This document shows positions 23,850-62,559 of a stretch of 64,000 nt of DNA, one piece after another. The stretch's first letter is position 1. Every line of letters begins with the position of its first letter. Both the position numbers and the translations under genes were made by a program. The stretch comes from Nannocystis bainbridge (GTDB taxonomy: Bacteria > Myxococcota_A > Polyangia > Nannocystales > Nannocystaceae): positions 512,001 through 576,000 of the forward strand of contig NZ_JAQNDL010000003.1 in the NCBI RefSeq assembly GCF_028368995.1, in the 5' to 3' direction. The notes beneath the pieces are model-generated. The model was given only the letters and a program-made list of their open reading frames with translations, searched no databases and had not been told where the DNA came from.

Positions 23850-23887
23850 GGTCCTGTTCTATAGGTCATGTCTGTTCGGACATGGCC
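23850..23887. repeat. 14-bp phased CATG array
   Basis: Cores at 23853 (CCTG), 23867 and 23881. Confidence 0.75.
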
Positions 23888-24403
23888 TTAGCGCGACTCG
23901 GTGCGGCGCCGGATCCGTTCGCACGCGCGCCGCCAACGCGAGCGGACCTGCTGCGGGCGCAGCCCCGGGTCGCTATCGTGCAGACGCGCCAGGATCACTT
24001 GCCGCTGCGCGTCCGTGACCAGGTCCAGGCAAGCCCGCAGCCTGCGCCCCGCGTCCTTGGCGTCGGGCTCGTCCCGCGCGACCAACCCGGCCACGCCGTC
24101 CCCGATGAAGACGATCCGCCCGGCCTGCCGTTGGAGTTTCCTGCACACCGTTTGAATCCCCCAGCGCAGGTGGGTCGCGAATCGCACGCTGCGGCCGAGG
24201 TCGAACGAGCGGACCCGGTCGACCAGCACGGCGCCGACCTCGGCCTCGACCTCGTCCGCGTCGACGCGCGCGGCGGCGGCCAGGGTGCGAGCCAGGGCCC
24301 TCGCATACGGCAGAAATGCCCGCATGATCGCGGCCTCGTCGCGGGCCTCGAACATGCGGCGCTCGTCCTCGGCGTCGACGAACTGGGCGCTACAGCGGCT
24401 CAC
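23888..24403 (-). CDS. Element-encoded sigma-70-family factor
   Basis: Region 2-like SFDLGRSVRFATHLRWGIQ; reduced region 4-like LDLVTDAQRQVI; GTGA coupling. Confidence 0.75.
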   Translation of the reverse strand: MSRCSAQFVDAEDERRMFEARDEAAIMRAFLPYARALARTLAAAARVDADEVEAEVGAVLVDRVRSFDLGRSVRFATHLRWGIQTVCRKLQRQAGRIVFIGDGVAGLVARDEPDAKDAGRRLRACLDLVTDAQRQVILARLHDSDPGLRPQQVRSRWRRACERIRRRTESR

Positions 24404-24612
24404 GGGCGCCTCTCCCTGGCGAGCGCGACGACCTCGGGCGGAAGGCCGCCCCGATCGGCAGCACGAAGGAGCGGCGCGAGCTTGGCGGCGCGTTCGCGGT
24501 CGAGCCGCTCGGCCTGGTCGCGGCACTCGGCGGCGACGGCGAGGTAGGCGCGCGCCGCTCCCCGAAGCCTGCCCGTTTCGACCTGTCTCCCAGGACATGC
24601 CACGCGAGTCAC
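24400..24612 (-). CDS. Small helical hypothetical protein
   Basis: Coupled by GTGA overlaps on both sides. Confidence 0.5.
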   Translation of the reverse strand: MTRVACPGRQVETGRLRGAARAYLAVAAECRDQAERLDRERAAKLAPLLRAADRGGLPPEVVALARERRP

Positions 24613-24616
24613 GGAG
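24565..24616. repeat. 14-bp phased CATG array
   Basis: Cores at 24568 (CCTG), 24582 (CCTG), 24596 (CATG) and 24610 (CACG). Confidence 0.75.
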
Positions 24617-25181
24617 TACCCCCGATCCAGCGCGGCGCAGGCAGCGGCGACGGGCGAGGCCGCGGCCGCGGCCGGGTGGGCCTCGGCGGCATCGACAGCG
24701 GCAGGCCAGGGGCGGCCCCGGCGAGCATCGGGACCCAGCGGGCCTTGTGCTCCCGTGCGCGCGAAATCTGAGCGTGCCCCGCAAGGGTGAGGCGCCAGCC
24801 GCGGCGCGTGTGCCAGTCGATCCGCGGGGCGTCGGCGAGAGCGGCCCGGACCAGCTCGACCCCGTAGCGCTCGACGATGCGGGCGGCGCGGACGCGCTCG
24901 ACCGGCCGCACAGGTGCGAGGGCGCCGGCGGCCCCGCGCACAGGATCGGCAGGCGCGAGCGTCCAGCCGGTCCGCAAGTGGCCCTCGACGCGCCGGCGCT
25001 CGCGGTGGATCGCGCCGGCCTCTTCGAGACGGCGCAGGTGGCGATACACCGTCGCGCGGTGAAGGCCGGACAGCGCGGCGAGCCGATCGGCGCTCGGGCA
25101 GGCCCACCCGCCCGCGAGCTCGCGCCGCAGCACGTCCAACAAGGGCCTCGCCTGCTCATTCAGACAGCTATTTTCCGCCAT
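24609..25181 (-). CDS. Winged-HTH protein (replication-initiator-like)
   Basis: CPSADRLAALSGLHRATVYRHLRRLEEAGAI; lies upstream of the sigma and DnaB genes. Confidence 0.7.
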   Translation of the reverse strand: MAENSCLNEQARPLLDVLRRELAGGWACPSADRLAALSGLHRATVYRHLRRLEEAGAIHRERRRVEGHLRTGWTLAPADPVRGAAGALAPVRPVERVRAARIVERYGVELVRAALADAPRIDWHTRRGWRLTLAGHAQISRAREHKARWVPMLAGAAPGLPLSMPPRPTRPRPRPRPSPLPAPRWIGGTP

Positions 25182-25182
25182 G

Positions 25183-26070
25183 TTAGCGACCCTCCCGGCG
25201 CTGCTCAGCCTCCCAGCGCGCGAGCCTGGCGACTTCGTGGCGAAGCACGTCAATCCGTCCCCGCATGTCGTCGGCCAAGTTCTCCCGCATGGTCTTGATC
25301 GCCGCCGCCTCCTCGGAGAGGCGGACCGCTTCCGCAGCGAGGCGAGCCGCGTCCTCCCGCACCCGAGTCTCAAGGCCCGCGCTCGCGGCCATCTCCTCGC
25401 GGAAGCGGTCCTCCAAGCCGCTGATCAGGGCTTCGAGCTCGCGCACGCGCGGATTCACCGTGGGCCCGAAGGCGGCGTCGCGGTAAAAGGCCACCGTCCC
25501 CACGTCGAGACGGGTCTTGCCGGCGATCGCCTCGTCGCTCCATCCCTCCGTATAGAGCCCCGTCTCGACCTGGAAGTGAGCGTCCAGAAGATCGTACATG
25601 TCCCGCAGGGCGCGTGCGGCCTCGGGCGAGGGGCGGCCTCCTGCGTCGAGCGCCGGCGAGGGCTCCGGCTGCGACGTTGCGGACACCGGCGGCGTTACCG
25701 GCCGCGGGGCGGACGGCGGCGTCGTGGGCGGCCGCGCGATGCTGTGTGCGGGGTGCTGAATGACCTTCGCGTCGTCGCCGTGCTTACCTGTCGCTTCCTC
25801 GCTGTGTTTACGCATGTTCTTTGATTCCTGGCACTTTGGACAGGTTGCTTTCTCGCCGTCGCGCACGACAGCCCACCCGAGCCGCGTCCATCGCTGCGTG
25901 ACGGCGATCGGGTTGATCTGCGGCTTGAAGGTTGCGAAGTCGCGGCGCTCGCAGGCTCCGCACACGATCCACATGCCCGTGCGCCCGTGTTCATCGCGAC
26001 CAAAGACGAGGGCGTGCTTTCCCTCGAATTGGGACGGCCGGGTCTTGCTCTCGCTGCAGCGGATCAGCAC
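25183..26070 (-). CDS. Zn-ribbon plus coiled-coil protein
   Basis: CGAC...CPKC pair; C-terminal heptads. Confidence 0.7.
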   Translation of the reverse strand: MLIRCSESKTRPSQFEGKHALVFGRDEHGRTGMWIVCGACERRDFATFKPQINPIAVTQRWTRLGWAVVRDGEKATCPKCQESKNMRKHSEEATGKHGDDAKVIQHPAHSIARPPTTPPSAPRPVTPPVSATSQPEPSPALDAGGRPSPEAARALRDMYDLLDAHFQVETGLYTEGWSDEAIAGKTRLDVGTVAFYRDAAFGPTVNPRVRELEALISGLEDRFREEMAASAGLETRVREDAARLAAEAVRLSEEAAAIKTMRENLADDMRGRIDVLRHEVARLARWEAEQRREGR

Positions 26071-27221: not shown

Positions 27222-27230
27222 TGCTGAACC

Positions 27231-29457: not shown

Positions 29458-29463
29458 TCGAAC

Positions 29464-29529
29464 AGACCTGCTGTAAAGGACATGCTCTCGAAGTCATGTC
29501 CCTTCACACATGCTCCGAGGGCCACGCGA
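29464..29529. repeat. 14-bp phased CATG array
   Basis: Cores at 29467 (CCTG), 29481, 29495, 29509 and 29523 (CACG). Confidence 0.88.
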
Positions 29530-30656: not shown

Positions 30657-30691
30657 GATGTCCTTGAAGACATGTCCCTAGGCACATGTCC
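30654..30691. repeat. 14-bp phased CATG array
   Basis: Cores at 30657 (GATG), 30671 and 30685. Confidence 0.8.
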
Positions 30692-31363: not shown

Positions 31364-31429
31364 TCGCATGTCCTTGAGGACATGCCTAAAACATCATGTT
31401 CATACGAACATGCCCCTCGGGGCATGTCG
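31364..31429. repeat. 14-bp phased CATG array
   Basis: CATG at 31367, 31381, 31395, 31409 and 31423. Confidence 0.93.
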
Positions 31430-31435
31430 AAAATT

Positions 31436-32221
31436 TCACCGCACGAGCTGGCCCACGAACCTCGCCGTCGCCGCCAGCGTCTCCTCGGGCCGCTCGCGGT
31501 ACGGGCTGTGTCCGCACCCCGCAAGCAGCAGCGTCTCGACCGGCCCGGCCACCCCGCCGGCGATCGCCTGCACCTGCGCGATCGTCCCGTACGCGTCGTC
31601 TTCGCCCTGGATCACCAGCGTCGGCGCCGTCACCTGCGGCAGGTAGCCCTCGAGGTTCCAGCGCCGGAACGCCGGGTCGAGCCACGCCTCGCACCAGCCG
31701 CGGAACGCCGCCTCCACGTTTTCGCCATGGTGCCGCTGCAGGCGCGCCCGCAGCTCGCCCGCCTCGTACTCGCGCTTCGCCGCCGCGATGCTGCGCACCG
31801 ACACCTCCTCGCAGAACACGTGCGGCGCCATCAGCACCAGCCCGGCCACCCGTTCGCGCCCGGCCGTCGCCGCGTGGACCAGCGCGATCGACCCGCCGTC
31901 GCTGTGCCCGACCAGGATCGCCGAGCGCACCCCCGCCGCGTCGAGCACCGCGCCGACCACCGCCTCGCCCTCGCGCTGCATGTAGTCGAGCGGCCGCGGC
32001 AGCGCGATCGTCTGCGAGCGGCCGTAGCCGGCGCGGCTGTACACCAGCGCCCCGCAGCCGGTCGCCGCGACCAGCCGCTCGGGGAAATCGCGCCACAGGC
32101 TCACGCAGCCGAGCCCCTCGTGCAGCAGCACCAGCGTCGGCGCCTCGGCCGGCCCGGGCCCGACCCACCGGTACTCGAGCCGCTGCCCTGCCGCCGTCAG
32201 ATAGCCTGTCTCTTGCGACAT
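31436..32221 (-). CDS. Alpha/beta hydrolase
   Basis: LLHEGLG, GHSDGG, IQGEDDAYG, GHSP. Confidence 0.92.
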   Translation of the reverse strand: MSQETGYLTAAGQRLEYRWVGPGPAEAPTLVLLHEGLGCVSLWRDFPERLVAATGCGALVYSRAGYGRSQTIALPRPLDYMQREGEAVVGAVLDAAGVRSAILVGHSDGGSIALVHAATAGRERVAGLVLMAPHVFCEEVSVRSIAAAKREYEAGELRARLQRHHGENVEAAFRGWCEAWLDPAFRRWNLEGYLPQVTAPTLVIQGEDDAYGTIAQVQAIAGGVAGPVETLLLAGCGHSPYRERPEETLAATARFVGQLVR

Positions 32222-32253
32222 GCCTGATTCAACATGTCCTTCCAGACATACCC
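32202..32253. repeat. 14-bp phased CATG array overlapping the hydrolase start codon
   Basis: Cores at 32205 (CCTG), 32219, 32233 and 32247 (CATA). Confidence 0.8.
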
Positions 32254-35286: not shown

Positions 35287-35463
35287 CCTGCAAGCGGCTC
35301 CCCCGCCATGAAGCTCCCCGTGCAGGTGCAAGCGCCGCCTGAGCAGCCGCGCACCGAAGTCGGCCTGCCGCGCGCGGCCGGCGAACGTATCCGCGAGACC
35401 ATGGCGGTGGCGATCCAATTCGCCAACACGGCGATCCTGCCGGACCTCGCGCTGTCGCCGACG

Positions 35464-38400: not shown

Positions 38401-39138
38401 CTGCGGGCCATCGCCCTGCGCAGCGCCGTCATGAGCGAGCAGGCCCAGCAGACCGGCGACTCGATGGTCGAGTTCGTCGCCGCCTACTACAGCGCCCTCG
38501 TCCTGCTCGCCGCCGACGCCCCCTCCGACGCGCGCGAGGTCGTCGCCCGCGCCGTCCGCCTCGGCAACGTCGCCGCCGGTTCGGCCGCCGGCCTGCGCGC
38601 CTCGATGATTGAGGCCCTCTGCGCCCAGTACGCCGGCGAGATCGCCATCGCCTGGACCGAGGTCGAGCGCGTCACCGCCCTGCTCGCTGCCGGCGGCGCC
38701 GCCTTCACCAAGAACCAGCGCGCCAACTTCATCAGTCTCCACGGACAGGTCGCATTGGCCATGGCCGAACGGTCAGGTACCGGCGACGCCCGCGAGCCCT
38801 ACCTGGCCGCCGCCGCCGCCGACGCCGACGCCCTCAAGCAGATCGGCAACGCCGGCGCGCTCGCCTCCGCCGCCCTCCTCGACGCCGCCGCCCTGGCCCT
38901 CCGCGCCGCCGCCGCCCCCACCGTCGTCGAGGCCCTGCACGCCGCCGCCGAGGCCTTCGACGCCGCCGACATGCCGCTCGCCGCCGCCGCCGCCCGCCTC
39001 CGCCTCGGCACCTGGATCGGCGGATCCGAAGGCGAGCAGATGATCGCCCGCAGCGAAGCCTTCATGCGCCTGCAAGCGATCGCCTGCCCGGCCCGGTGGG
39101 TCATCACCAACACCCCCGGCCTGTCCCCGCCGCTGTGA
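35464..39138 (+). CDS. Ser/Thr protein kinase with AAA ATPase and helical repeat region
   Basis: [18 protein letters not shown], and Walker A GQPGVGKT; start uncertain (35308-35491). Confidence 0.92.
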
Positions 39139-39216
39139 CATCGGCAAGGACATGTCCCGAAGGACATGTCACCGTTCGCTTGGCAACCTCGCGCGCCGGC
39201 GATATCGTTGAACGCG

Positions 39217-40752
39217 ATGTCTCCCGCCGAAGCCACGCCGTCGTCGGCGCTGCCCGCCCGCCCCGAGGCGCAGAGTCTTCGCGTCGATGCGCTCGTCCAC
39301 GACATCCTGTCCGGCCGGGTCCGCATCCCGGAAGTTCCCTCGAGTTGGGAGCCGAGCGACGTCCTCGCCCTGCTCGACAGCATGGATCGCGGCTACCCGA
39401 TCGGCATCCTGCTCCTGTGGCAGCGGCCCGCGCCGCCCAAACGGCTCGTCTACGGCAGCGTCACGCTCGACGTCCCTGCCTGCGCCGACGCCTTGTGGGT
39501 CGTCGACGGCCAACAGCGCCTCCTCGCGCTGCTGCGGGTCTTCGCGGGCGCCGGTCGTCCCACGGAGTCGTACGCGGTGTCCTACGACCTCGAACGAGCC
39601 ACATTCGAGCGGACGCACGGCGACTTCGACCCGCACGCCCTCCCGCTCACCGAGGTCCTCGATCCCGCGCGCCTGAACGCCTGGCTGAGCGCGCGCTCGG
39701 TGAGCAGCCGCCACCGACAGGCCGCGCTTCACCTCGGCGAGCGGCTGCGCGAATACACGATCCCGGCATACGTGCTCGGCACCCCTGACGAGACCGTCGT
39801 GTATGACCTCTACCGCCGCGTCAATGCTCCACACCGACGCCTCGCCCACGAAGCCGTGTTCGCAGCGCTCCATCGACGCGGCACCTCGGGGCCCCAGACA
39901 CTCCGAGAGGTCGCCGAAGGTCTGGCGGACCTCGACTTCGGCCCACTCGAAGAACATGTCTTGAAGGGCATGTTCTTCGAGCCATCTCATTCATTGAATG
40001 CGATCGAAGGCGTCATCCGTGCGACCGTCCAGTTCTTGCGGGAAGACGCCGGAATCCCTCACGTCTCGCTCGTCCCGGTCCCGTCGTCCCTCTCCGTCCT
40101 GTCCCGCGTCCTCGCTCGCTTCCCCGCCGCCCATCCGCGCACCCGCGAGCTCCTGTCGCGCTGGCTCTGGCGCGACGCGCTCGCGGGCGCCCGTCACGGT
40201 GACCCCTCGCGGCAGCCAGAACTGAGGGCCATCGAGACCGAAGACGAATACTCGGCCGTCGGGAGCCTGTTGCGCTGCGCCGCGCCTCACCCGGCCGCGG
40301 ACATCTTCCAGGATGGCGTCTTCGACCCCGGCTCGCCGGCTTCGCGGGTTCACCTGCTCGCGCTCCTCGACCTGGGCCCCCGTCACCTCGCCGATGGCAC
40401 GCCCGTCACTCCGGCTCGACCGGCCGACGCCTGCGCCTACCAGCCGCTGATTCGTCCCATCGTCCCCAATCTGCCCGAGGGCGCTCACGAGCTCGACAAC
40501 CTCATATTGCATCCCTCAGGGCTGGACGGGCTCGTCTCCCTCATCATCGCCTGCGAGTCGAGGGAGTTGCTGGCGACCCATGCCATTCCGCTGCCCGCCC
40601 GGGACGCGCTGCAGGCAGGGCACCTCGCGCAGTTCCTCCAGCTCCGCCACGCCGACATCCACACGCAGCTCCGTCGCTTCATCGACCGGCGAGCCCAGTG
40701 GCACGAGGCCGACACTCCGCCCGTCGAGGCGCTCCGGCTCGGAGGCGACTGA
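39217..40752 (+). CDS. DUF262 (ParB/GmrS-like) domain protein
   Basis: LLDSMDRGYPIGILLLW and VVDGQQRL. Confidence 0.85.
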   Translation: MSPAEATPSSALPARPEAQSLRVDALVHDILSGRVRIPEVPSSWEPSDVLALLDSMDRGYPIGILLLWQRPAPPKRLVYGSVTLDVPACADALWVVDGQQRLLALLRVFAGAGRPTESYAVSYDLERATFERTHGDFDPHALPLTEVLDPARLNAWLSARSVSSRHRQAALHLGERLREYTIPAYVLGTPDETVVYDLYRRVNAPHRRLAHEAVFAALHRRGTSGPQTLREVAEGLADLDFGPLEEHVLKGMFFEPSHSLNAIEGVIRATVQFLREDAGIPHVSLVPVPSSLSVLSRVLARFPAAHPRTRELLSRWLWRDALAGARHGDPSRQPELRAIETEDEYSAVGSLLRCAAPHPAADIFQDGVFDPGSPASRVHLLALLDLGPRHLADGTPVTPARPADACAYQPLIRPIVPNLPEGAHELDNLILHPSGLDGLVSLIIACESRELLATHAIPLPARDALQAGHLAQFLQLRHADIHTQLRRFIDRRAQWHEADTPPVEALRLGGD

Positions 40753-40754
40753 TC

Positions 40755-41987: not shown

Positions 41988-42035
41988 GTTGCCCCGAGGG
42001 ACATGCCCGCTCGGACATGCCCCTCGCGCCAGCCC

Positions 42036-42785: not shown

Positions 42786-43103
42786 CCCCGCGAGTAGACC
42801 ACACCGCCCCGGCCCCCGTCGCCCCCGCCGCGTGCGCTATTCGACGCCCGCCGGCCCCCGTCCGCGATCACCCGCTCACGCCGGGGAATCCCCCGCGCCT
42901 GTCCTTCACAACATGCTCCGAAGGCCAGCCTATGTCAGCGTCACGGCCAGCGCGGCGGCTGGCGAGCGGACCCTGGGCGCCCGGCCTCCCATGCTCCGAG
43001 GGGGAGTCTCGATCCTCGCCACGACGGACGCGACCGGCTCACGGGCGCACGCTCTCGAACTCCCCAACCTGGTCTCTGCCGCTCGGCTCACCCGGCGCTG
43101 CGG

Positions 43104-44153: not shown

Positions 44154-44259
44154 CGCCGCGACGATACCCGATCGCCCGCCCCCGCGCATCACCGCCGCCA
44201 TGTCCCGTTCGACATGTCCTTCAGGACACCCGACCCCGCGGCGTCGCGTCCCCGGGCGG

Positions 44260-44660: not shown

Positions 44661-44712
44661 GTGCATGTCCCCGAGAACATGCCTCTTAGAGCATGCCCCA
44701 AACGACATGTCC
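44661..44712. repeat. 14-bp phased CATG array
   Basis: CATG at 44664, 44678, 44692 and 44706. Confidence 0.92.
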
Positions 44713-44732
44713 TGAAGTTTCTCCTAAAAAAC

Positions 44733-47045
<2,313 letters not shown>

Positions 47046-47334: not shown

Positions 47335-47414
47335 GGGCATGTCGCTTCGAACATGCCCCCGAGGACATGCCCGAAGCGACATGCCCCTGCGGACATGCCC
47401 CGCGAGACAGCCTC
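47335..47414. repeat. 14-bp phased CATG array (longest)
   Basis: CATG at 47338, 47352, 47366, 47380 and 47394; CAGC at 47408. Confidence 0.95.
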
Positions 47415-47419
47415 GCGCC

Positions 47420-47851
47420 TCAGAACTTCCCGGACACGAACGCCATCGGCCGCATCACCTTCCCGGCGCCGCGCATCGCCGAGGTGAAGAACGACAGCAC
47501 CGCCGTCTGCACCCCGACCCGCACCTCGGTCCCGCGCACCCGGTACTGCAGCTTCGGCTGGACCAGCCCGACCCCCGCGCCCATCGCCGGCGCCGACAGC
47601 AGCGCCGCCGAAAAGCTGTCGAGGCGCCGGTGCTTCGGCGTCAGCTCGAGCGCCCACATCGGCTGCAGCTGGTACTCGAAGCCGCGAAACGGCCGCGACA
47701 GATCGATCATCGGCGACCAGGTCAGGAAGTGCTCCTGCTTGAGCACGAACACCCCTGCGAGATCCCACTCGCGCGGCGGCGCGGTCATCGGCGGCGAGAG
47801 CACCGCCGGCGCCTGCATGAGCCATCCTGCCAGCGACGCGATCGTGATCAC
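47420..47851 (-). CDS. Hypothetical protein, beta-strand-rich, ending in Phe
   Basis: 3' portion of the long track ORF; plausible GTG start at 47851. Confidence 0.55.
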
Positions 47852-47977
47852 GCTCCCACCATACGCCGCGCCCTGCGCCCCGACAACTCGCGCCGCTCGC
47901 TCGCTCGCCGACCGGGTCCAGGGGTCGGGGAGACACTGTTCGCGGCGGGATCTCCGCGCTCGTGCTATCGTCCGCGC

Positions 47978-50020: not shown

Positions 50021-50026
50021 CCTTTC

Positions 50027-50078
50027 GGACCTGCCCCATGCGACCTGTCCTCCAAAACATGTCCATTGGCGCAGGTCC
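50027..50078. repeat. 14-bp phased array
   Basis: Cores at 50030 (CCTG), 50044 (CCTG), 50058 (CATG) and 50072 (CAGG). Confidence 0.85.
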
Positions 50079-50200
50079 GAGCGCTGCCTCGCCTGTCCCG
50101 ACGCCCACGCCGCCCGGGACCTATCCCGCCAACCTGTCCCTCGGGACATCTCGCTCCCCCTCTATCCACACCCCCCTCGCCGCCTGACCGCGGAGACCCT

Positions 50201-50965
50201 ATGCGACCCGTACTCATCGGACTGTCCTGCGGGACATCCTATCCCGACCCCGGCCGCGCGCTGTTCCTCGGCAAGTCGCTCGACTACGGCGAGCAGCGGC
50301 TGTCGGCCGCGCTGGCCCGCGCCGGCGCCTTGCCGTTCCTCCTGCCTGTCCTTCCGGACACCTCGATGCTGGTCGCGCTGGTCGAGCGGGTCGACGCGCT
50401 GGTCCTGAGCGGCGGCAGCGACGTCGCCCCCGGCGTCTACGGCGAGGCCCCGCTGCGCCCCGAGTGGGCCGGCGACCCGGCCCGCGACGCCTACGAGCAG
50501 GCGCTGCTCGGCGCCGCGCTGGCCCAGGGCAAGCCGGTGCTCGGGGTCTGCCGCGGCATCCAGCTGCTCAACGCCGCCCTCGGCGGCAGCCTCTACCAGG
50601 ACATCGGCTTCCAGGTCCCGGGCGCGCTGGTCCACCGCGACCCCGCCCGCTACGACGACAACGAGCACCCGGTGCGACTGCTCGCGGAGTCATGGCTGGC
50701 CGCGCTCTACGGCGCGCCCGAGCTGCTCGTCAACTCCGTCCACCACCAGGCCATCAAGGCCCTCGCGCCCGGCCTGCGCGCCTGCGCGTGGGCGCCCGAC
50801 GGCATCATCGAGGCCGCCGCCGACGAGCGCCGTGACATCTACGGCGTGCAGTGGCACCCCGAGTGGCTCGACCGCGAGAGCCCGCACTTCGCCCGCCGCT
50901 GCGCCGGCGACCCGATCTTCAGCGCCTTTGTCGCCCGCGTCCGCGTCCGCGCCGGCGTCGCGTGA
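50201..50965 (+). CDS. Gamma-glutamyl-GABA hydrolase family (peptidase C26)
   Basis: LSGGSDV, GVCRGIQ, NSVHHQ, GVQWHPE. Confidence 0.9.
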   Translation: MRPVLIGLSCGTSYPDPGRALFLGKSLDYGEQRLSAALARAGALPFLLPVLPDTSMLVALVERVDALVLSGGSDVAPGVYGEAPLRPEWAGDPARDAYEQALLGAALAQGKPVLGVCRGIQLLNAALGGSLYQDIGFQVPGALVHRDPARYDDNEHPVRLLAESWLAALYGAPELLVNSVHHQAIKALAPGLRACAWAPDGIIEAAADERRDIYGVQWHPEWLDRESPHFARRCAGDPIFSAFVARVRVRAGVA

Positions 50966-51159
50966 GCGCGGCTCTCACGACCGCGCGCCCTCGCATCACC
51001 AGCGCCGCAGCCGCTCGTGACGCGCAGTCGCGACGCCGCGCCGGCGCGGCGTGCATCGGCGCTCACTCGCGCCTTGCGGGCCTGTCACGACGATCTCGCC
51101 GCGATGTCCGATCGGCGTCGCCTGGATCTCCCGATCGGTTTCCGATAGCCTGCGCGATC

Positions 51160-52374
51160 ATGCTCGCTCGCCCTGCGGCCCTGCTCTCGACCTTCGTCCT
51201 CCTCCTCGGCTGCGGCGGCGACGATCGCCCTGGCGGCGACACCGAGACCACCGGCCTCACCTCGGGCGACCCGGGCAGCGACGCCGCGACCGCCGCACCG
51301 ACCACCACCGACGCGACCTCCGGGACAGGAACTTCAGGACAGGACCCTACGGGCATGTCCTCCGAGACAGACGACGTCACCACCGCCGATCCGCCGGTGA
51401 CCACCACTGAAGATCCGCCCGACACCACCGGCGGCCCGGGCCCCGCCCCTGGCGCCCTGTGCGAGCCGGTCCCGAAGTGTGACGCCGCCCCGCCGACCAT
51501 CCCTGGCCAGGGCGAGCCGGAGGGTGAGTACTCGCGCGGGCGCGACATGTTCTACGTCGAGGGCGAGGAGCAGTGGGTGATCGCCAAGTTCACCAAGTGG
51601 GGCTTCCCCGCCGACAAGGACATCGAGGGCAGCGCCGTCCACCTGTTCCTCGACCGCGGCTGCGCCGGCGAGTGGGAGGACCTCGGCGTCGCCATCACCA
51701 CCGTCGAGGGCGAGCACGCGCCGGTCCAGGGCGTCGACGACTCCGGCGGCCGCGTCTATTACAAGATCTCCCAGTCCGACCAGCTTGAGCCGGGCCGTCA
51801 CCGCGTGCACGGCGTCGTCGAGGAGTTCTGGGACACCGTCGACATCACCATCGACGTCGTCCCGGCCGGCGCCCCGATCTTCGTCAGCGACGTCGACGGC
51901 ACCCTCACCACCAGCGAGAGCGAGGAGGCCTGGGACTTCTTGCTCGGCGACATCCCCGAGGCCAACCCGTTCGCCGCCGAGGCGCTGAGCCTGCTCGCGT
52001 CGAAGGGTTATCGCCCCATGTACTTGACCGCCCGGCCCGAGTGGCTCGACCGGCGCACGCGCGAGTTCGTGGCCCTGCGCGGCTTCCCCGCCGGGATCAT
52101 TCACACCACGCTCACGTACACCGGCGGCATGGGCGACACCGCCGCCGCCTACAAGACCGGAGAATTTCAGCTACTCAAAGACAAGGGCCTCGTCCCGACC
52201 TGGCTGTTCGGCAACAAGGACAGCGACGCCGAGGCCTTCGAGTCGACCATGATCCCGACCGACCAGCGCGTGCTGTTCCAGTTCACCGACGCCGTCCACG
52301 GCGCCCGGCGGATCGAGAGCTACCAGGAGCTCCTCGCCGAATTCGAAGCCCTGCCCGACCTGTGCGGCCGATGA
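51160..52374 (+). CDS. Lipoprotein with LNS2/PITP-type HAD phosphatase domain
   Basis: LLGC lipobox; SDVDGTLT; YLTARP; FGNKDSD. Confidence 0.8.
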   Translation: MLARPAALLSTFVLLLGCGGDDRPGGDTETTGLTSGDPGSDAATAAPTTTDATSGTGTSGQDPTGMSSETDDVTTADPPVTTTEDPPDTTGGPGPAPGALCEPVPKCDAAPPTIPGQGEPEGEYSRGRDMFYVEGEEQWVIAKFTKWGFPADKDIEGSAVHLFLDRGCAGEWEDLGVAITTVEGEHAPVQGVDDSGGRVYYKISQSDQLEPGRHRVHGVVEEFWDTVDITIDVVPAGAPIFVSDVDGTLTTSESEEAWDFLLGDIPEANPFAAEALSLLASKGYRPMYLTARPEWLDRRTREFVALRGFPAGIIHTTLTYTGGMGDTAAAYKTGEFQLLKDKGLVPTWLFGNKDSDAEAFESTMIPTDQRVLFQFTDAVHGARRIESYQELLAEFEALPDLCGR

Positions 52375-52880
52375 AGACCGGCACCTTGCTCGCCCTCGGG
52401 GCCGTCACCCTCGGCCTGTTCGGCTACACCCTGTGCCAGCTCGGCGGCCGCCCGCCCGAGCGGCCCGCCGAGGTCGCCCGCGCCGCCGCCGCCAAGAAGA
52501 CCCGGGAGGCCGTCCAGTTCCGCGACCTCCGCGACGAGCAGGACGCCCGCGCCGCGCTCGCCGTGTCGCTGCGCAGCCGGCTCGAGCGCGCCCTCGAGGC
52601 CCCCGAGGAGCTGCCGCCGCTGCCGACCCCCAACGACCGACTCGAGGCCGAGACCGCCTTCGAGGTCGTCATGGGTCAGATCGAGGGCCTCGCCGACAAG
52701 GGCGGCCCCCACCCCAAGGGCAAGCGCAAGCGGCTCTACCGGGCCGCCAACGACGCCTTCGCCGCCCTCTCCAATCACCTCGACGGCCACGACCCGCGCG
52801 ACCGCCTCGCCCTCGAGGACGCCCACGTCCGCCTCAAGGTCATGCTGCGCGAGATCGACGCCGGCCCGCCGGGCTCCTGA
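52371..52880 (+). CDS. Membrane-anchored hypothetical protein
   Basis: ATGA coupling; N-terminal TM. Confidence 0.7.
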   Translation: MKTGTLLALGAVTLGLFGYTLCQLGGRPPERPAEVARAAAAKKTREAVQFRDLRDEQDARAALAVSLRSRLERALEAPEELPPLPTPNDRLEAETAFEVVMGQIEGLADKGGPHPKGKRKRLYRAANDAFAALSNHLDGHDPRDRLALEDAHVRLKVMLREIDAGPPGS

Positions 52881-52886
52881 CCCGAA

Positions 52887-52952
52887 GCGCATGTCCCCGG
52901 CGCCATGTTCTCCAGGACATGTTTTTAAGAACATGCCCCCGGAGACATGTTC
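52887..52952. repeat. 14-bp phased CATG array
   Basis: CATG at 52890, 52904, 52918, 52932 and 52946. Confidence 0.93.
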
Positions 52953-52973
52953 ATCCACGGTTCCGCAATTATC

Positions 52974-53006
52974 GAGACCGCCGGGCCTCGCGGCCGCGGC
53001 GGTCTC
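52974..53006 (-). terminator. 10-bp stem hairpin downstream of the micro-ORF
   Basis: GAGACCGCCG (52974-52983) pairs with CGGCGGTCTC (52997-53006). Confidence 0.5.
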
Positions 53007-53024
53007 GCGCGGGCCCTCGCCCGC

Positions 53025-53072
53025 CTAGCGGTCGAGGAACAGCCCCGCCTGGATCTTCGTCTTCTTCTTCAT
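53025..53072 (-). CDS. 15-aa micropeptide MKKKTKIQAGLFLDR
   Basis: GGAGGTG SD 8 nt upstream, TAGCGT -10-like element and a downstream hairpin. Confidence 0.5.
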   Translation of the reverse strand: MKKKTKIQAGLFLDR

Positions 53073-53178
53073 CGCCGCGGCACCTCCCGGCTTCACGCTA
53101 CCACGGCCCTCCAGCCGGCCTCGCGCCGCGGTTTCGCGCCCCGCTCACCGGCCCCGCGCGTGCTATCGTGAGCGCCTC

Positions 53179-55548
53179 GTGCAGCTCCGCGCCCGCGTCG
53201 CGCTCCTCTTCGCTGCCGTCCTCGCCTGTCACGACGACGCGGCCGAGGCCGACCCGCACGCCGTCGACTACGGCGACGCCTGCCGCGAGTCCGACTGCGC
53301 CCCCGAGATCCCGATGACCGGCCAGGTCTCGCCCGCCTTCGTCGAGCTCGACATCGCCATGCGCCAGTTCGTCAAGGCCCGCTGCGTCGGCGCCGGCGTG
53401 CTCAGCGTGTCGCTCCGCGGCCGTCGCGTCTACAAGCGCGGCTTCGGGCGCATGGCGGGCCCGGCCGCCGCCGACATGCCCGGGTGCAACGACGGCCCCA
53501 TGGCCGACGTCGATCGCTTCCAGCCCGAGGCCACGTTCGTCCAGCCCGACACCCCGCTGCGCCTCGGCAGCGTCTCCAAGTTCCTGACCGCCGCCATGGC
53601 CCGCCGGCTGATCGGCGCCCGCATCGAGCAACATGGCCTTCAGGACATGTACCCGACGCCGTCCCACGCGCGCATCGCCGACCCCGCCCTCGGTCTGCTC
53701 CCGCCCGACCTGCTCGCCGCCTTCGCCGGCGCCCGCTGCGGCCCCGTCACCGTCGACGACGTCGCCGCCGGCTGCACCCGCAGCTGCGGCGACGCCGGCC
53801 CCGACGTGCGCTGGCGCGACGTCACCGTCGGCGACCTGCTCGCCCACACCAGCGGCCTGCCCGGCAAGGCCGCCAACTGGGGCGCCCACGTCGTCCCCAA
53901 CTTCGGCGCCCTGCGCGGCTTCACCGGCGAGGCCGACTGGGCCGCCGAGGACGCCGCCCTGCGCGCTCGCTACCCCGAGTTCGCCGGCGACATCGAAGCC
54001 ACGCGGACCTGGCTGCAGCAGACCCTCCCGGCCCGCCACGTCTATTTCGTCAGCCGCTACGATCGCCGCGACACCGACCCGCAGCGCGAGTGGCTCGGCG
54101 TCTTCCTCACCCGCTGCCTCGTGCGCGACCCCGCGGGCGCCAGCGACGACGGCGCGTTCAAGGGCCCCTACTCCAACACCAACTACGCCGTCCTCGACAG
54201 CGTCGTCGCCCATCTGTCCGCCAGCGGCCGCTACGCCGCCGAGGCCGGCCACCCCGAGCAGCACGCCGACTCGGCCCTGCGCGAGTTCCTCGCCGACCTC
54301 GAGCTGGGGGGCGGCGTCGCCAGCGTCGAGGCCATCTTCCGCACCCCCGCGGCCCAGGGCTCACCTGCCCTTTCGGACATCCCCGAGCTGCGCGCCTGGG
54401 ACGGCCGCACCTACCGCCCGCTCGACTGGGAGGACAAGCGGCCCTACTGCGTGTGGCAGGGCGATCGCTGCGACTTCTCGCCCTGGCTCGCGCGCAAGTC
54501 GACCCGCCCGCGCTGGGACTTCGCCGGCCTGCCCGCGCCCCTGGGCGTCCCGCTCGCCGGCCAGGCGCTCACCGCCGGCACCGGCGCGCTGTCGGCCGAG
54601 GCGCCCGCGCTGCTGCGGATCGTCCACCGCTACGCCCTCGGCGACGACGACATCCTGCAAGGTCGTCCGCGCGAGAGCTGCGGCGAGGCCTGCAATTTCG
54701 TCATGGACAAGGCCGGCTCGCTCGGCGGCGGTCGGGCCTACGCCATCAGCCTGCCCGGCGGGACCCGGGAAGTCACCCTGCCCGGCCTCGCGCCCGACGG
54801 CCGCCTCTCCGACCTCGGCCCGCGCCTGCGCCTCGCCATCACCGAGCCCGCCGACGTCGACGTCGTCGTCATGGTCGGCCAGAGTGACGACGGCCGTGAC
54901 GCCGGCAGCGTGGTCTACAGCGACCTCGACGAGATGATCCGCTTCGGCCTCTCGCGCGTCGACTGGGCCGCCGTCGAGGCCGAGCTGGCGGCTCAGGCCA
55001 TCCGCGTGGTCGGCCTCGCGATCGACGATCGCGGCGACGCCAACTACTGGTGCGCCGACGATCGGCTCACCGTGCGCCGCGGCGACCCGGCCGGCGTGTC
55101 GAACGGCGAGCTGCTCAGCCGCGACCCTTACCGCCTGCCCGCCACCCGGATCGGCGTCGACGTCGTCGCCGTCGCCCGCGCCCTCGATCGCCCCGGCGAC
55201 CAGGTCGTCGCCTGGTATGACGACGGCCACGTCGGTCGCGGCGATCCCCACGACCTCCGCGGCGCCGCGCGGCCCGAGCCCTACCGCCCCGCCCCCGGCC
55301 GGACCTATCGCGACCTCGCCGCCGTCGTCGTCACCCCGGCCGGCGAGGCGATCGCCCTCTATCACGACGGCGCCGCCAGCTTCGGCACCCTCACCGACCT
55401 CGCCGCCCACGGTCTCGGGCGCTTCGAGGGCCGCGACCCCGTCAGCGTCGACGCGCTCGCCCTCGCCCCTGACGGCCGCCTGTTCGTCCTGCACCGCGAC
55501 GGCAGCGTCGACATCACCGACCTCGCCGCCTTCGCGCGCGACGAGTGA
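53179..55548 (+). CDS. Serine hydrolase (beta-lactamase family) lipoprotein
   Basis: VLAC lipobox; SVSK, LLAHTSGL, YSN. Confidence 0.8.
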   Translation: MQLRARVALLFAAVLACHDDAAEADPHAVDYGDACRESDCAPEIPMTGQVSPAFVELDIAMRQFVKARCVGAGVLSVSLRGRRVYKRGFGRMAGPAAADMPGCNDGPMADVDRFQPEATFVQPDTPLRLGSVSKFLTAAMARRLIGARIEQHGLQDMYPTPSHARIADPALGLLPPDLLAAFAGARCGPVTVDDVAAGCTRSCGDAGPDVRWRDVTVGDLLAHTSGLPGKAANWGAHVVPNFGALRGFTGEADWAAEDAALRARYPEFAGDIEATRTWLQQTLPARHVYFVSRYDRRDTDPQREWLGVFLTRCLVRDPAGASDDGAFKGPYSNTNYAVLDSVVAHLSASGRYAAEAGHPEQHADSALREFLADLELGGGVASVEAIFRTPAAQGSPALSDIPELRAWDGRTYRPLDWEDKRPYCVWQGDRCDFSPWLARKSTRPRWDFAGLPAPLGVPLAGQALTAGTGALSAEAPALLRIVHRYALGDDDILQGRPRESCGEACNFVMDKAGSLGGGRAYAISLPGGTREVTLPGLAPDGRLSDLGPRLRLAITEPADVDVVVMVGQSDDGRDAGSVVYSDLDEMIRFGLSRVDWAAVEAELAAQAIRVVGLAIDDRGDANYWCADDRLTVRRGDPAGVSNGELLSRDPYRLPATRIGVDVVAVARALDRPGDQVVAWYDDGHVGRGDPHDLRGAARPEPYRPAPGRTYRDLAAVVVTPAGEAIALYHDGAASFGTLTDLAAHGLGRFEGRDPVSVDALALAPDGRLFVLHRDGSVDITDLAAFARDE

Positions 55549-57548: not shown

Positions 57549-57592
57549 CCTTTTCTACCTGCCCTTAAGTACAGGAACAAAAAGCCATGCCA
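57541..57592. repeat. 14-bp phased array spanning a stop codon and the next start codon
   Basis: Cores at 57544 (CCTG), 57558 (CCTG), 57572 (CAGG) and 57586 (CATG, containing ATG 57587). Confidence 0.75.
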
Positions 57593-59131: not shown

Positions 59132-59275
59132 AGCGACCTGTTCTCGCGGAGATGTGCGTTCGCCGCCGCGCGGGGCGAACGCGAGTCCGCGCGGGCGCCG
59201 TCGCGCGCGCTCCCGGGCGCCTGCGCCCGCGGTGGCACCCTGCCCGCGATCCGGCGACACTCTGACCCCGCGCCC

Positions 59276-61213: not shown

Positions 61214-61270
61214 ATTGGCCGCCTCCTCGCGCGAACGGCCGCTGGCATCGTCCTTGCTCAGGGACGAGGT

Positions 61271-61588
61271 ATGGTCCTCGCGCGCTCGCTCTTCGCCCTC
61301 ACGCTCCTCTCCGGCTCGCTCGCCCACGCGGCCGCCCCCGCCTCCCCGGCCCCGGCTCTGACCCGGCCCGCCGAGGCCGTCGTGGCTGCGCGGATCCCCG
61401 TCACCTACCGCGACGTCTACGCGCTCGCAGGTGTCCTGAAGGACATCTTCGCCGTCCACCCCGAGCGCGGTGACGTGCGCGCCATCCTCTCCGACAGGAA
61501 CGACTCGGTCCTCGTCGTGTTCGCCACCCCGACCGGTCACGCCGAGGTCCGCCGCGTCCTCGCCGGCCTGCTCCCCGGCCCGCCGTGA
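61271..61588 (+). CDS. Secreted stand-alone secretin-N (NolW-like) domain protein
   Basis: Signal peptide; IPVTYRDVYALAGVLKDIF...SDRNDSVLVVFATP...VRRVLAGL. Confidence 0.55.
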   Translation: MVLARSLFALTLLSGSLAHAAAPASPAPALTRPAEAVVAARIPVTYRDVYALAGVLKDIFAVHPERGDVRAILSDRNDSVLVVFATPTGHAEVRRVLAGLLPGPP

Positions 61589-61745
61589 ACCCACGCGCCG
61601 CGCGGCCGCTCGACCGGGCGCGCCTCGCGTCTGCGCGACCTCCTGCGCGCACCGCTCGCGCGACCGATCGCCGCGCGCTGCCGTTCGCCGCCCCATCGAT
61701 CTCTCACCCGCTCCGAAACCGACCCGACCCAAAGGACATGTCCCC

Positions 61746-62480
61746 ATGCGCAGCTTCCTCCGCACCCTCGCCTTCCCGATCGCTTGCGCCCTCACCGGCG
61801 CCGCCGCGGCCCTCTTCGTCGTCACCGTGAACCAGGCCCCCGCGCCCGCCTGCCCAGCGGCGCCCACGATCCATATCCGCCACGAGATGCAGGCGCTGGC
61901 CACGGCGCCCAGCCTCCACGAGCGACGAGCAGCCCGCGTCGCGCCCCCGCGCGTGGCTCCGGTCGCCTTTGTCCACCCCACCGTCGCCGCGCCCGCGCGC
62001 GTCGCCCCGGTCGCCTTTGTCCACCCGACCATCGCCGCGCCCGCGCCCTTCGACGACCCCAGGAGCCGCCTCGAGGTCCCGGCGGGCGCCGTGCGCTGCG
62101 TCGAGACCGGCCGCTGCGTCGTCGACCTCGGCTTCTACCAGACCCTCCGGCGCGACCCGTCGCTGCTGGCCCGCGAGGCGCACATCCTCCCCTCGCTGAA
62201 GGACGGCCACATGCGCGGCCTCAAGCTCTACGCGATCCGCTCCGGCAGCTTGCCGAGCCTGCTCGGGCTCAAGAACGGCGACCTCCTGACCCGCCTCAAC
62301 GGCGTCCCGCTCGACCAGGAGGGCGGCGCCAGCATCGCCGGGGCAGTGGTGGGGCTCATCCGCGACCGCGAGCAGCCGATCATCCGCATGGACATCGAGC
62401 GCAAGGGCCAGCCGATCGCCGTCTCGATCGACGTCGCCTCGCTGAAGGAGGCGCTGCAACCCGCCTCCGCGGGCCACTGA
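61746..62480 (+). CDS. GspC-like PDZ domain protein
   Basis: N-terminal TM; GLKLYAIRSGSLPSLLGLKNGDLLTRLNG; duplicated RVAPVAFVHPT(V/I)AAP linker. Confidence 0.7.
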   Translation: MRSFLRTLAFPIACALTGAAAALFVVTVNQAPAPACPAAPTIHIRHEMQALATAPSLHERRAARVAPPRVAPVAFVHPTVAAPARVAPVAFVHPTIAAPAPFDDPRSRLEVPAGAVRCVETGRCVVDLGFYQTLRRDPSLLAREAHILPSLKDGHMRGLKLYAIRSGSLPSLLGLKNGDLLTRLNGVPLDQEGGASIAGAVVGLIRDREQPIIRMDIERKGQPIAVSIDVASLKEALQPASAGH

Positions 62481-62493
62481 CCCGCGCTCGATA

Positions 62494-62559
62494 GGACATG
62501 CCCCTGAGAGCATGCTCCATGCGACATGTGCATGCGAGCATGTCCCTTGCGACATGTAT
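62494..62559. repeat. 14-bp phased CATG array
   Basis: CATG at 62497, 62511, 62525, 62539 and 62553. Confidence 0.93.

Follow-up and report, generated by a model that had tools for sequence, protein, structure and literature searches.

[quoted passage not shown] TRIT is now considered an RNase III substrate (PMC13714241), and a putative factor reading the double-stranded motif has been inferred by its authors (PMC3152330, PMC13714241). In enterobacteria and pseudomonads, repetitive extragenic palindromes (REPs) sit between unidirectional and convergent ORFs (PMC3733652), and one of them, REP325, acts as both terminator and stabiliser of mRNA (10.64898/2026.03.23.713779). In Neisseria, the uptake sequence is found in ~55% of high-confidence terminators (PMC1852404).

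The arrays discussed here, present in a 64,000-nt stretch of DNA from the soil bacterium Nannocystis (the window) and throughout the 11-Mb genome, are best explained as a family of tandem extragenic palindromes, specific to the genus, at transcription-unit 3′ ends. They look like an apparently undescribed kind of gene-end signal; our literature search found no published description of such arrays, and the window matched no Rfam family. With TRIT they share conservation of sequence and structure, palindromy and hence a mostly bidirectional character, tight placement at stop codons, restriction to a single genus and the absence of a classical U-tract role (PMC3152330, PMC13714241). However, TRIT as published is a single element of ~45–50 nt in 147 copies (PMC3152330, PMC13714241), whereas the Nannocystis genome carries, at ~2,070 loci, 2 to 20 copies of a 14-bp module, with free linkers, an absolute pitch and an unrelated sequence. 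The REP/BIME elements are likewise high-copy extragenic palindromes located mainly downstream of genes, in co-directional or convergent settings, often clustered or in tandem, with a G-T pairing bias and species or genus specificity (PMC3733652). On the other hand, REPs are described as imperfect hairpins of 20–40 nt, tagged by GTAG or CGTC and associated with a Y1 (RAYT) transposase (PMC3733652), whereas the Nannocystis arm is a tagless 10-bp palindrome at an exact 14-bp spacing, and Y1_Tnp was found in 0/11 genomes of the genus vs. 17/30 genomes of other genera.

The window holds 31 occurrences of CATG-N10-CATG, whereas 100 dinucleotide-preserving shuffles average 0.48 ± 0.70 (0/100 reaching 31), and the N9 and N11 spacings yield one match each (expected 0.53 and 0.54, respectively). 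CATG pairs also recur at lags of 28, 42 and 56 bp (15, 13 and 5 pairs), and 30 of the 31 pairs at 14 bp lie between 23850 and 64000, the remaining one between 1 and 23849. Genome-wide, the 39,940 CATG sites form 3,736 pairs at lag 14 over a background of ~100, followed by 2,073, 1,586, 751 and 383 pairs at lags 28, 42, 56 and 70, which bears out the 14-bp recurrence reported by the initial annotation. No excess was seen genome-wide at lags 13 and 16 (72 and 79 pairs) or at lag 15, where 262 pairs are normal for a multiple of three. The unit consensus, built from chains of at least three units, is GGRCATGYCC followed by four weakly constrained bases that are A/T-enriched at mid-linker. Among the 11,938 GGR....YCC decamers of the genome, 1,771 carry the CATG core (vs. 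29 for the reversed control), and the variants CCTG (371) and CAGG (309), also listed in that annotation, are real, the next core counting 237.

Array density averages ~1 per 5 kb over the genome, so the earlier figure of one array per kb reflects an array-rich window. The five examples singled out at the outset (31367-31423, 44664-44706, 47338-47408, 52890-52946 and 62497-62553) are all present (Table 1). Where ~30 clusters had been counted at the outset, a relaxed scan of the whole window listed 31, but ~22 are credible within 23850-62559; ~8 of the relaxed-scan clusters were discarded as chance or other repeats (15328, 15349, 34959, 36675, 54705, 56621, 58279). The clusters announced at 57544 and 59123 are degenerate two-unit sites, with 6–8 of 10 positions per unit.

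Table 1. Arrays and related sites in the window, with their gene context.
Feature	Coordinates	Strand	Context and remarks
2-unit array	23864..23887	.	GGTCATGTCT gttc GGACATGGCC
3-unit array	29478..29515	.	
2-unit array	30668..30691	.	
5-unit array	31364..31429	.	Ends 7 nt before stop codon of minus-strand hydrolase gene 31436-32221
3-unit array	32216..32253	.	Inside 68-nt gap, minus-strand genes on both sides
2-unit array	39148..39171	.	Begins 10 nt past stop of kinase gene 35308-39138; folds into 9-bp stem with 4-nt loop
2-unit array	39952..39975	.	
2-unit array	41999..42022	.	Occupies 48-nt convergent gap, stop codons at 41987 and 42036; counterpart at same site in 5/5 congeners, linkers differing
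2-unit array	42895..42918	.	CCTG core in one unit
2 units + half unit (GGACA)	44196..44224	.	
4-unit array	44661..44712	.	Ends 21 nt before stop of minus-strand helicase gene 44733-47045
5-unit array	47335..47408	.	Between divergent helicase and M3 peptidase genes; sole 5′-side array of the window; units 1-4 on minus strand, 24-bp stem, -56.9 kcal/mol
4-unit array	50027..50078	.	Begins 6 nt past TGA of peptidase gene; outer units with mutually pairing CCTG and CAGG cores
Array-like sequence	51337..51360	.	Within gene 50962-52374
5-unit array	52887..52952	.	Downstream of gene 50962-52374
Degenerate 2-unit site	57558..57581	.	CTACCTGCCC ttaa GTACAGGAAC; 38-nt co-directional gap
Degenerate 2-unit site	59140..59163	.	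Directly past TGA stop codon
5-unit array	62494..62559	.	Convergent gap 62481-62627; begins 14 nt past stop codon

The arrays mark gene 3′ ends. With genes positioned by our own crude GC3-based caller, which covers 73–77% of each contig and places start codons imprecisely, arrays are found in 60–66% of short convergent intergenic regions, 10–20% of co-directional ones and 2–6% of divergent ones. For regions of 61–200 nt the counts are 285/461, 112/893 and 11/295, respectively; with any core allowed they are 366/555, 224/1,112 and 18/349, vs. 18, 5 and 1 in reversed-sequence controls. Within co-directional gaps, 411 arrays lie closer to the upstream stop and 176 closer to the next start. An array starts within -12 to +120 nt of the stop in 1,371 of 6,348 called genes, with sharp peaks at +6, +11/+12 and -8 nt, which therefore place the TGA within a unit, and arrays frequently adjoin or overlap the stop codon; the peak of TRIT lies near -8 (PMC3152330, PMC13714241). 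Arrays on the 5′ side are few (e.g., 47335-47408; 18/505 short divergent gaps). Among the roles proposed from the sequence at the outset, termination control fits this position. For chromosome organisation and self-marking the analysis yielded no evidence, the one related result being the scarcity of arrays in low-GC stretches described below.

Could the decamer be a DNA uptake signal, enriched by biased uptake and recombination and since recruited to terminator hairpins, as is the case in Neisseria? We consider this highly improbable. The uptake sequences of Neisseria and Pasteurellaceae are also motifs of ~10 bp, in more than 1,000 copies, characteristic of one genus and forming terminator stems where complementary copies lie close together (PMC1852404). 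An uptake drive would match the excess of perfect copies over the reversed control, their confinement to one genus, the pairing of decamers in 3′ hairpins and the scarcity of arrays in probably foreign DNA, and would hold units at consensus as linkers drift. However, uptake sequences as described there are non-palindromic and variably spaced, without in-register arrays (PMC1852404), and the Nannocystis units are strongly depleted in genes. Gene interiors, though 72% of the genome, hold only 447/1,771 perfect units. Uptake sequences are common inside genes; moreover, 1,521/1,771 perfect units are flanked in phase by another unit, and an uptake signal leaves the exact 14-bp pitch unexplained. 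Arrays are scarce in low-GC bins of the genome, as they are in the window's IS66/ParB-like stretch, and these array-poor low-GC stretches are probably acquired DNA; such scarcity is expected of any long-resident element.

Among the genomes searched, arrays are confined to Nannocystis. They occupy the same intergenic sites in five congeners (eight regions inspected), with a linker identity of 39% and a CATG core identity of 83–98%, so that the conserved phase and variable linkers first noted within the window also hold between species. Contrary to the initial annotation, the linkers are nevertheless not entirely free: G/C is avoided at mid-linker, and positions 2-3 share 0.32 bits of mutual information. 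Unit number varies between congeners at a given site, and matches to the strict two-unit pattern range from 0–15 up to 184 per genome, the low-count genomes being fragmented assemblies (40–1,440 contigs). Recent tandem duplication, with linkers that are identical, accounts for some arrays (e.g., eight copies of GGTCATGYCC-ctga), and others show higher-order periods of 28, 42 and 56 bp. Identical linkers are ~2.4-fold enriched at separations of 1–3 units, but adjacent linkers are identical in only 2.6% of cases (1.06% under the null), and for this reason we concur with the initial annotation that this is no slippage microsatellite. Nor is it a CRISPR.

These duplications, periods and linker repeats, together with the unequal unit numbers, the wide range of densities (low-count genomes being fragmented) and the scarcity in low-GC bins and the IS66/ParB-like stretch, would suit a selfish or neutral minisatellite-like repeat, propagated by slippage in 14-, 28- or 42-bp steps with hairpin-templated copying. 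Such a repeat would be functionless, surviving only where harmless, at a distance from promoters and past the ends of genes; convergent gaps would be favoured by mere tolerance as well. We judge this unlikely: a single consensus and register are kept at ~2,000 independent loci in all array-rich species while linkers are randomised, indels are absent, and the genus lacks a REP-type mobilising enzyme in the Y1_Tnp survey given above. Since their linkers are unique, whole arrays are not transposed copies.

Our best reading, which we hold tentatively, is that the arrays are REP/TRIT-like bidirectional 3′-end elements read by a putative sequence-specific factor. Because the unit is self-complementary, each pair of neighbours, in transcripts of either strand, would be able to close a 10-bp stem around a 4-nt loop, and the arrays may act in termination and/or in mRNA 3′-end processing and protection. 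We infer action at the RNA level, together with any effect on termination or stability. Linkers drift, yet consensus and register persist at ~2,000 loci and in different species; such a factor, acting in trans and reading both sequence and spacing, must therefore exist.

Each of the 11 arrays that were folded is more stable than its shuffles (z -2.4 to -7.8); with this folding, the R/Y covariation of the self-complementary units and a REP/TRIT-type distribution, the earlier statement that the arrays do not fit REP hairpins was too strong. In a sample of 60 gaps per class, convergent gaps with arrays have a median fold z of -3.35, with 85% under -2; among gaps without arrays, 32% of convergent but 8% of divergent ones are structured, which suggests that 3′ hairpins are generally needed in this genome. 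Terminators of the classical hairpin-plus-T type show no enrichment (6 vs. 4.8 expected; 3 vs. 3.5 expected). Across 1,003 two-unit arrays, stem positions covary (z 3.0–8.7), extending 3 nt beyond the decamer, and loop positions do not. The 511 near-perfect double units include 217 fully complementary R/Y combinations vs. 131 expected, whereas half-compensated ones are depleted to 0.25–0.8 of expectation. In co-directional gaps, units of the G..T type are commoner on the sense strand than those of the A..C type (328 vs. 252, p = 0.0018), with unskewed linkers. Pairing and covariation between neighbouring units are modest, and hairpin-templated mutation could mimic the latter.

The main rival to this 3′-end element, which was the idea of the initial annotation and which we regard as possible, is a cooperative DNA-binding lattice, in which a dimer would sit on each decamer, or on each TGYCC-N4-GGRCA junction, and polymerise through the 14-bp register. 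At gene ends such a lattice would terminate transcription as a roadblock, act as an insulator or keep supercoils from passing between convergent genes. Such lattices exist: MetJ forms a dimer chain on met boxes, which are 8-bp palindromes in tandem, and arrays of 7-bp heptads are the target of the omega repressor. In both cases short units, palindromic or inverted and repeated in tandem at fixed pitch, carry a chain of touching dimers. To our knowledge, dimer-chain binding is the only known logic requiring exact register. The strict pitch, which is kept despite so little linker identity and leaves lags 13, 15 and 16 without excess, favours a lattice, as do the conserved core with its free linkers and the A/T-rich linker centre in a 71% GC genome; because the pitch is strict while linkers are near-randomised between species, indels are selected against. 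Hairpins could be built with loops of 3 or 5 nt and with spacers of any length between them, and the absolute pitch thus speaks against the hairpin reading.

Several further features argue against hairpins, and some of them also for a lattice. Array size shows no even/odd preference, even unit numbers not being favoured, and strong and weak neighbour pairs do not alternate along the arrays. In a sample of 420/686 arrays, the real unit order gained only 0.53 kcal/mol over permuted units and linkers, and substituting linkers taken from other arrays cost no stability (p = 0.90); the consensus itself therefore supplies almost all of the folding energy, order and linkers adding next to nothing. Core variants of neighbouring units recur in direct rather than complementary order and are uncompensated (20 same-variant pairs, CAGG-CAGG or CCTG-CCTG, vs. 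9 complementary). Linkers and loops are near-perfectly strand-symmetric, even under one-way transcription, loops showing no sense vs. antisense bias (GNRA 79 vs. 70, UNCG 55 vs. 46). In addition, a few arrays do lie on 5′ sides, as given above, and no T-tract was seen downstream of arrays.

On the other hand, complementary covariation of neighbours and the sense-strand G..T bias are unexpected for independent duplex half-sites. Profile searches of the genome for a reader protein returned no candidate: MetJ (PF01340) had no match, nor had Omega_Repress (PF07764) and P53 (PF00870), whose control searches matched nowhere either, making these two weak blanks. MetJ and omega sites are operators, few in number, that lie on plasmids or ahead of the genes they regulate, whereas in Nannocystis the sites run to thousands and mark the 3′ ends of genes. 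We know of no precedent for bacterial protein-roadblock terminators in the thousands.

The decamer consensus reads, letter for letter, as a p53 half-site (RRRCATGYYY), and the foremost literature matches for GGACATGTCC were all p53 studies. We dismissed this link as a coincidence of sequence; the P53 domain gave no hit in the genome in the search just described, whose control also matched nowhere. The array-like sequence within gene 50962-52374 (Table 1) differs in that its linkers are also conserved in congeners; it is therefore under coding constraint and probably lies outside the functional array family.

The arrays of 14-bp pitch constitute a real and abundant family of cis-elements, which lies at the ends of transcription units and is restricted to one genus. 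The CATG pattern reported in the initial annotation proved genuine and very strong: the window holds 31 pairs of CATG exactly 14 bp apart, against a mean of 0.48 (sd 0.70) in 100 dinucleotide-preserving shuffles, none of which reached 31, and pairs one base short or one base over occur once each, at chance level. Further pairs lie at lags of 28, 42 and 56 bp (15, 13 and 5, respectively), and 30 of the 31 pairs at lag 14 fall in 23850-64000. The genome-wide peaks that the same annotation had expected at 14, 28 and 42 bp are also present. In the 11.05 Mb of the window's genome (5 contigs, 71-72% G+C), 39,940 CATG sites form 3,736 pairs at lag 14, 2,073 at 28, 1,586 at 42, 751 at 56 and 383 at 70, over a background of 72 pairs at lag 13, 79 at lag 16 and 262 at lag 15, the last being usual for multiples of three. 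Chaining of CATG cores, with one absent core tolerated, yields 2,074 arrays (about 2,070), among which 1,120 have two cores, 347 three, 276 four, 210 five, 91 six, 24 seven and 6 a larger number; the biggest is 20 units across.

The consensus consists of the palindromic decamer GGRCATGYCC followed by 4 weakly constrained bases, with A/T enrichment in the middle of the linker. Perfect decamers occur 1,771 times in the genome and the reversed, non-complemented decamer 29 times. The variant cores noticed earlier in the window are real as well: when the flanks GGR....YCC are held fixed, CATG (1,771) is followed by CCTG (371) and CAGG (309), the next commonest core reaching 237. Except in this tally and in the any-core survey of intergenic gaps, arrays are defined by CATG cores throughout. 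Units tend genome-wide to R/Y asymmetry (A..C or G..T), and homotypic GGGCATGCCC is much rarer than expected (9 among 196 perfect left-hand units, against about 30). The hexamer GCATGC is not rare, with 3,813 copies in the genome.

Genes were called from third-position G+C (6,348 genes, 73-77% of each contig, with imprecise starts), and Pfam matches on eight long frames are consistent with these calls. The midpoint falls outside called genes for 795 of the 954 arrays with at least three cores and for 545 of the 607 with at least four. Gene interiors account for 72% of the genome and for 447 of the 1,771 perfect decamers; an in-phase unit lies exactly 14 bp away from 1,521 of the 1,771. Overall, arrays occupy 60-66% of short convergent gaps and 2-6% of short divergent ones. 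Among gaps of 61-120 nt, they are found in 143/238 convergent, 49/477 co-directional and 3/168 divergent cases; among gaps of 121-200 nt, in 142/223, 63/416 and 8/127; and, with any core admitted, among gaps of 40-200 nt in 366/555, 224/1,112 and 18/349, against 18, 5 and 1 in the reversed-sequence control. In co-directional gaps (intergenic regions below 20 nt or above 1,500 nt dropped), the array is closer to the upstream stop codon 411 times and closer to the next start 176 times. An array starts from -12 to +120 nt of the stop codon in 1,371 of the 6,348 called genes, and the starts peak sharply at +6 (83), +11 (78), +12 (53), -8 (32) and +20 (36), which implies that a unit often encloses the TGA (unit positions 5-7 or 0-2). 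The biggest arrays take up the entire convergent gap between two stop codons. The list of the 18 array-bearing short divergent gaps, taken alone, gave no obvious lead to the gene of a reader protein.

Arrays and other annotated features of the window, with their setting
Feature	Position	Setting
Array	41999-42022	convergent gap
Array	62494-62559	convergent gap
Array	39148	about 7-21 nt from a stop codon
Array	50027	about 7-21 nt from a stop codon
Array	44661	about 7-21 nt from a stop codon
Array	31364	about 7-21 nt from a stop codon
Array, the single one on a 5' side	47335-47408	between divergent helicase and M3 peptidase genes
IS66-family transposase	20231-21901	
Protein with ddrB-like ParB domain	8841-11429	

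Often, the TGA stop codon belongs to a unit (TGACC... or TGACATG...), and the coding sequence thus runs into the first unit. Inside the gene at 50962-52374, positions 51337-51360 contain an array-like run (GGACAGGACC ctac GGGCATGTCC); it is kept in all five aligned congeners (other Nannocystis genomes), linkers included, unlike the intergenic arrays, and the congeners add an in-phase unit upstream.

The initial annotation had proposed a survey of related myxobacteria, which found the arrays within Nannocystis and, among the genomes searched, nowhere beyond it. With a strict two-unit pattern, the window's genome gives 184 matches and nine of ten other genomes of the genus give 1-127, with no occurrence in 14 other genera of the family or in 16 genomes of the other families of the class; the same pattern read backwards is absent from every genome. 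Across 185,579 species, each represented by one genome, a strict three-unit pattern was found at 13 loci, 12 of them in records titled Nannocystis. The sole match outside the genus, on a Nocardiopsis contig (L016, 7376-7413), consists of GGGCATGTCCGGGC three times with identical linkers and was dismissed as a plain microsatellite. An analogous lattice built on a different word in another genus of the family was likewise rejected, as 200 kb of one such genome (G024) contained no comparable non-triplet periodicity and no non-triplet lag spike (maximum 35, median 22.5); the 41.8 kb obtained from a second genome of this kind (G022) is too short for judging periodicity.

Within the genus, the arrays keep their place and register while their linkers change. 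Five congeners share synteny with the window across 39000-53500, their genes being 85-92% identical, and in the eight regions inspected in the alignment most or all species carry an array at the corresponding site. Orthologous arrays differ in unit number, in linker sequence and even in core type, one congener having five CCTG/CCTT units where other species show CATG units. Over seven intergenic arrays and five species, identity is 39% in the linker (near random), 71% in the whole unit, 83% at third codon positions and 83-98% in the CATG core, the core value being somewhat inflated since the aligner favours CATG on CATG, which leaves the linker figure unaffected. These seven come from about 12 arrays in the region, those at 39148 and 39952 having been dropped for want of aligned orthologous sequence and those at 45368 and 51337 because they lie inside genes. 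Recent tandem duplication accounts for some arrays, which show identical linkers or super-periods of 28, 42 or 56 bp, and adjacent linkers are identical in 2.6% of cases overall against 1.06% under the null. Arrays thus grow by slippage, after which units and register persist while linkers drift. Such growth is what a selfish or neutral minisatellite would display; the lack of pairs one base off despite linker drift, however, suggests that indels are purged by selection, and we consider a minisatellite of this kind quite unlikely.

Arrays are scarce in the 100-kb bins of the genome with lower G+C. Positions 1-23849 of the window, which include segments of 60-63% G+C, contain 90 CATG sites and a single lag-14 pair, and are probably acquired or mobile DNA. 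At 44219-44260, three congeners (loci L028, L029 and L032) have about 3 kb of extra genes missing from the window, and two more have remnants; the extra block holds an in-phase four-unit array, apparently within or between its reading frames.

As far as our searches reach, the family is undescribed. Identity with a catalogued repeat family, which the initial annotation had said would count against its reading, was not found, no Rfam family being present in the window at gathering thresholds. Literature on Nannocystis repeats, intergenic regions and terminators, on the decamer and on myxobacterial extragenic palindromes contained no description of the arrays (supplements lay outside the scope). 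The decamer is identical to the p53 half-site consensus, and the literature found for it concerns p53 only. CRISPR arrays, in which 24-48-bp repeats alternate with unique spacers about as long and which occupy one or a few loci, can be set aside for units of 10 bp with 4-bp spacers at about 2,070 dispersed loci. DNA uptake sequences (DUS/USS) are 9-12 bp long, occur in at least 1,000 copies in one genus, and are spread through genes and intergenic regions without fixed register. The arrays match their size, copy number (1,771 against 29 reversed) and genus specificity (Nannocystis only), but not their gene-wide spread (447/1,771 in interiors) or free register (1,521/1,771 in phase), so that an uptake signal appears highly improbable.

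Tandem palindromic units at an exact pitch also characterize the operator lattices of MetJ and omega. The screen for a reader covered the MetJ (PF01340), Omega_Repress (PF07764) and P53 domain families and gave no match to any of them in the genome; the control for MetJ was positive in E. coli, whereas those for the other two were silent everywhere, and their blanks carry little weight. The arrays share with REP elements the character of high-copy extragenic palindromes lying mainly 3' of genes. REP hairpins bear a GTAG or CGTC tag at their end, whereas the arrays have no conserved tetranucleotide outside the decamer, and their linkers vary. The Y1 transposase of REP-associated systems (PF01797) had no match in the window's genome or in ten congeners (genomes 64-91% complete) and was found in 17 of 30 genomes of other genera, with a search control positive in 6 of 14 named genomes; a REP family driven by such a transposase was therefore rejected for all 11 Nannocystis genomes searched. 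Canonical intrinsic terminators likewise have a G+C-rich hairpin, a feature the arrays share. This identity was discarded because the U-tract is missing (T frequency behind arrays in sense orientation is 0.08-0.34, with no run) and terminator-like sites are not enriched, hairpin-plus-T terminators in 24-64 kb numbering 6 against 4.8 expected, and 3 against 3.5.

Nearer relatives exist in kind. The Tuberculosis Rho-independent terminator motif (TRIT) is restricted to Mycobacterium and narrowly placed at about -8 of the stop codon (PMC3152330), and it is now regarded as a substrate of RNase III (PMC13714241). The arrays have the traits of TRIT, namely conserved sequence and structure, palindromic form, a narrow position at stop codons and confinement to one genus; the likeness is one of kind and not of homology, the sequences being unrelated. 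REP/BIME elements (PMC3733652; 10.64898/2026.03.23.713779) and the uptake-sequence terminators of Neisseria (PMC1852404) are near relatives of the same sort. The arrays belong to none of these three families. No known family combines, as they do, free linkers with a frozen 14-bp register.

Each unit is self-complementary, and adjacent units on either strand can therefore pair into a 10-bp stem closed by a 4-nt loop. The 11 arrays of the window that were folded all did better than their shuffles (z -2.4 to -7.8), with neighbour stems of 9-24 bp; the 24-bp stem lies on the minus strand of 47330-47415 (-56.9 kcal/mol). Across 1,003 two-unit arrays, stem positions covary between units (z 3.0-8.7), which speaks for pairing; three positions beyond the decamer covary too (z 3.6-5.5), and loop positions do not. 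This junction covariation may partly stem from a mixture of array-interior and isolated sites; in one analysis, cis associations equal the pairing ones in strength. The R/Y complementarity of perfect double units is immune to this objection: among 511 near-perfect double units, fully complementary combinations (AC/GT, GT/AC, AT/AT, GC/GC) number 217 against 131 expected, and half-compensated ones are depleted. Co-directional gaps read in the sense direction contain more G..T than A..C units (328 against 252, p=0.0018), and the composition of their linkers is unskewed. In random samples of gaps, significant structure was found in 85% of convergent gaps with arrays, 32% of those without (sample of 60) and 8% of divergent gaps. 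On this evidence, our leading though tentative reading is a bidirectional 3'-end element of REP/TRIT-like kind, which would act via transcripts with a putative sequence-specific reader. A search for sequencing runs that contain window 41001-51000 listed contigs of soil metagenomes, which are unable to reveal transcript ends, and none from RNA.

Other results count against a purely structural role. The pitch is absolute at 14 bp, whereas hairpins could form with loops of other sizes and with spacers of any length between them. Array sizes in the genome have no even/odd preference, and a parity of alternating hairpin and spacer was rejected, neighbour pairs being without strong-weak alternation. 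In a sample of 420 arrays with 3-7 units, the native unit order gains just 0.53 kcal/mol over permuted orders (p=0.0017), and exchanging the linkers for foreign ones makes folding no worse (p=0.90). Long nested hairpins do not hold as a rule, linkers two apart being reverse-complementary in 3.7% of cases against a null of 1.05%, a minority of arrays. Core variants in neighbours have the same orientation in 20 pairs and complementary orientation in 9, and array loops exhibit no sense-strand preference for stable tetraloops. The frozen register with free linkers keeps alive the initial annotation's reading, a lattice of dimers binding cooperatively to duplex DNA, which we hold to be possible, if doubtful. 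Taken together, free linkers, frozen core and frozen pitch imply a reader sensitive to sequence as well as to spacing, a property not known from any REP, TRIT or uptake system. In a more specific form, which we judge unlikely, a dedicated sequence-specific protein would polymerise on the duplex 14-bp lattice at one fifth to two thirds of transcription-unit ends and stop or insulate RNA polymerase in both directions. The mTERF, Reb1 and TTF-I proteins are roadblock terminators of organelles and eukaryotes, and such a reader, if it exists, would be their bacterial counterpart, invented in one myxobacterial genus.

The arrays bear on how high-G+C bacteria without classical hairpin-plus-U terminators end their transcripts. 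One genus carries the same 10-base word, in strict register, behind more than one fifth of its genes, and about two in three of its short convergent gaps contain it. An answer would reveal a new termination or processing factor, or else a DNA-bound lattice of a new type. The arrays could also supply a compact, modular and bidirectional terminator part for myxobacterial engineering. Cultured strains of Nannocystis exist (named records), and the question is thus open to direct experiment.

Other repeats of the window include a perfect 21-bp tandem repeat at 15297-15404, CTCGGGCACGACCTCGACCAG (3.8 copies, 100% matches), just 3' of the gene at 13743-15239 and unrelated to the 14-bp family, though a relaxed array scan caught it. 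A 48-bp tandem repeat (61940-62046, 2.2 copies, 91% matches) lies within the gene at 61470-62480, and an 18/36-bp repeat (9764-9842) within that at 8841-11429. The + strand has a strongly negative GC skew over 30000-64000 (-0.08 to -0.19), yet most genes of 47-62 kb are on the + strand.
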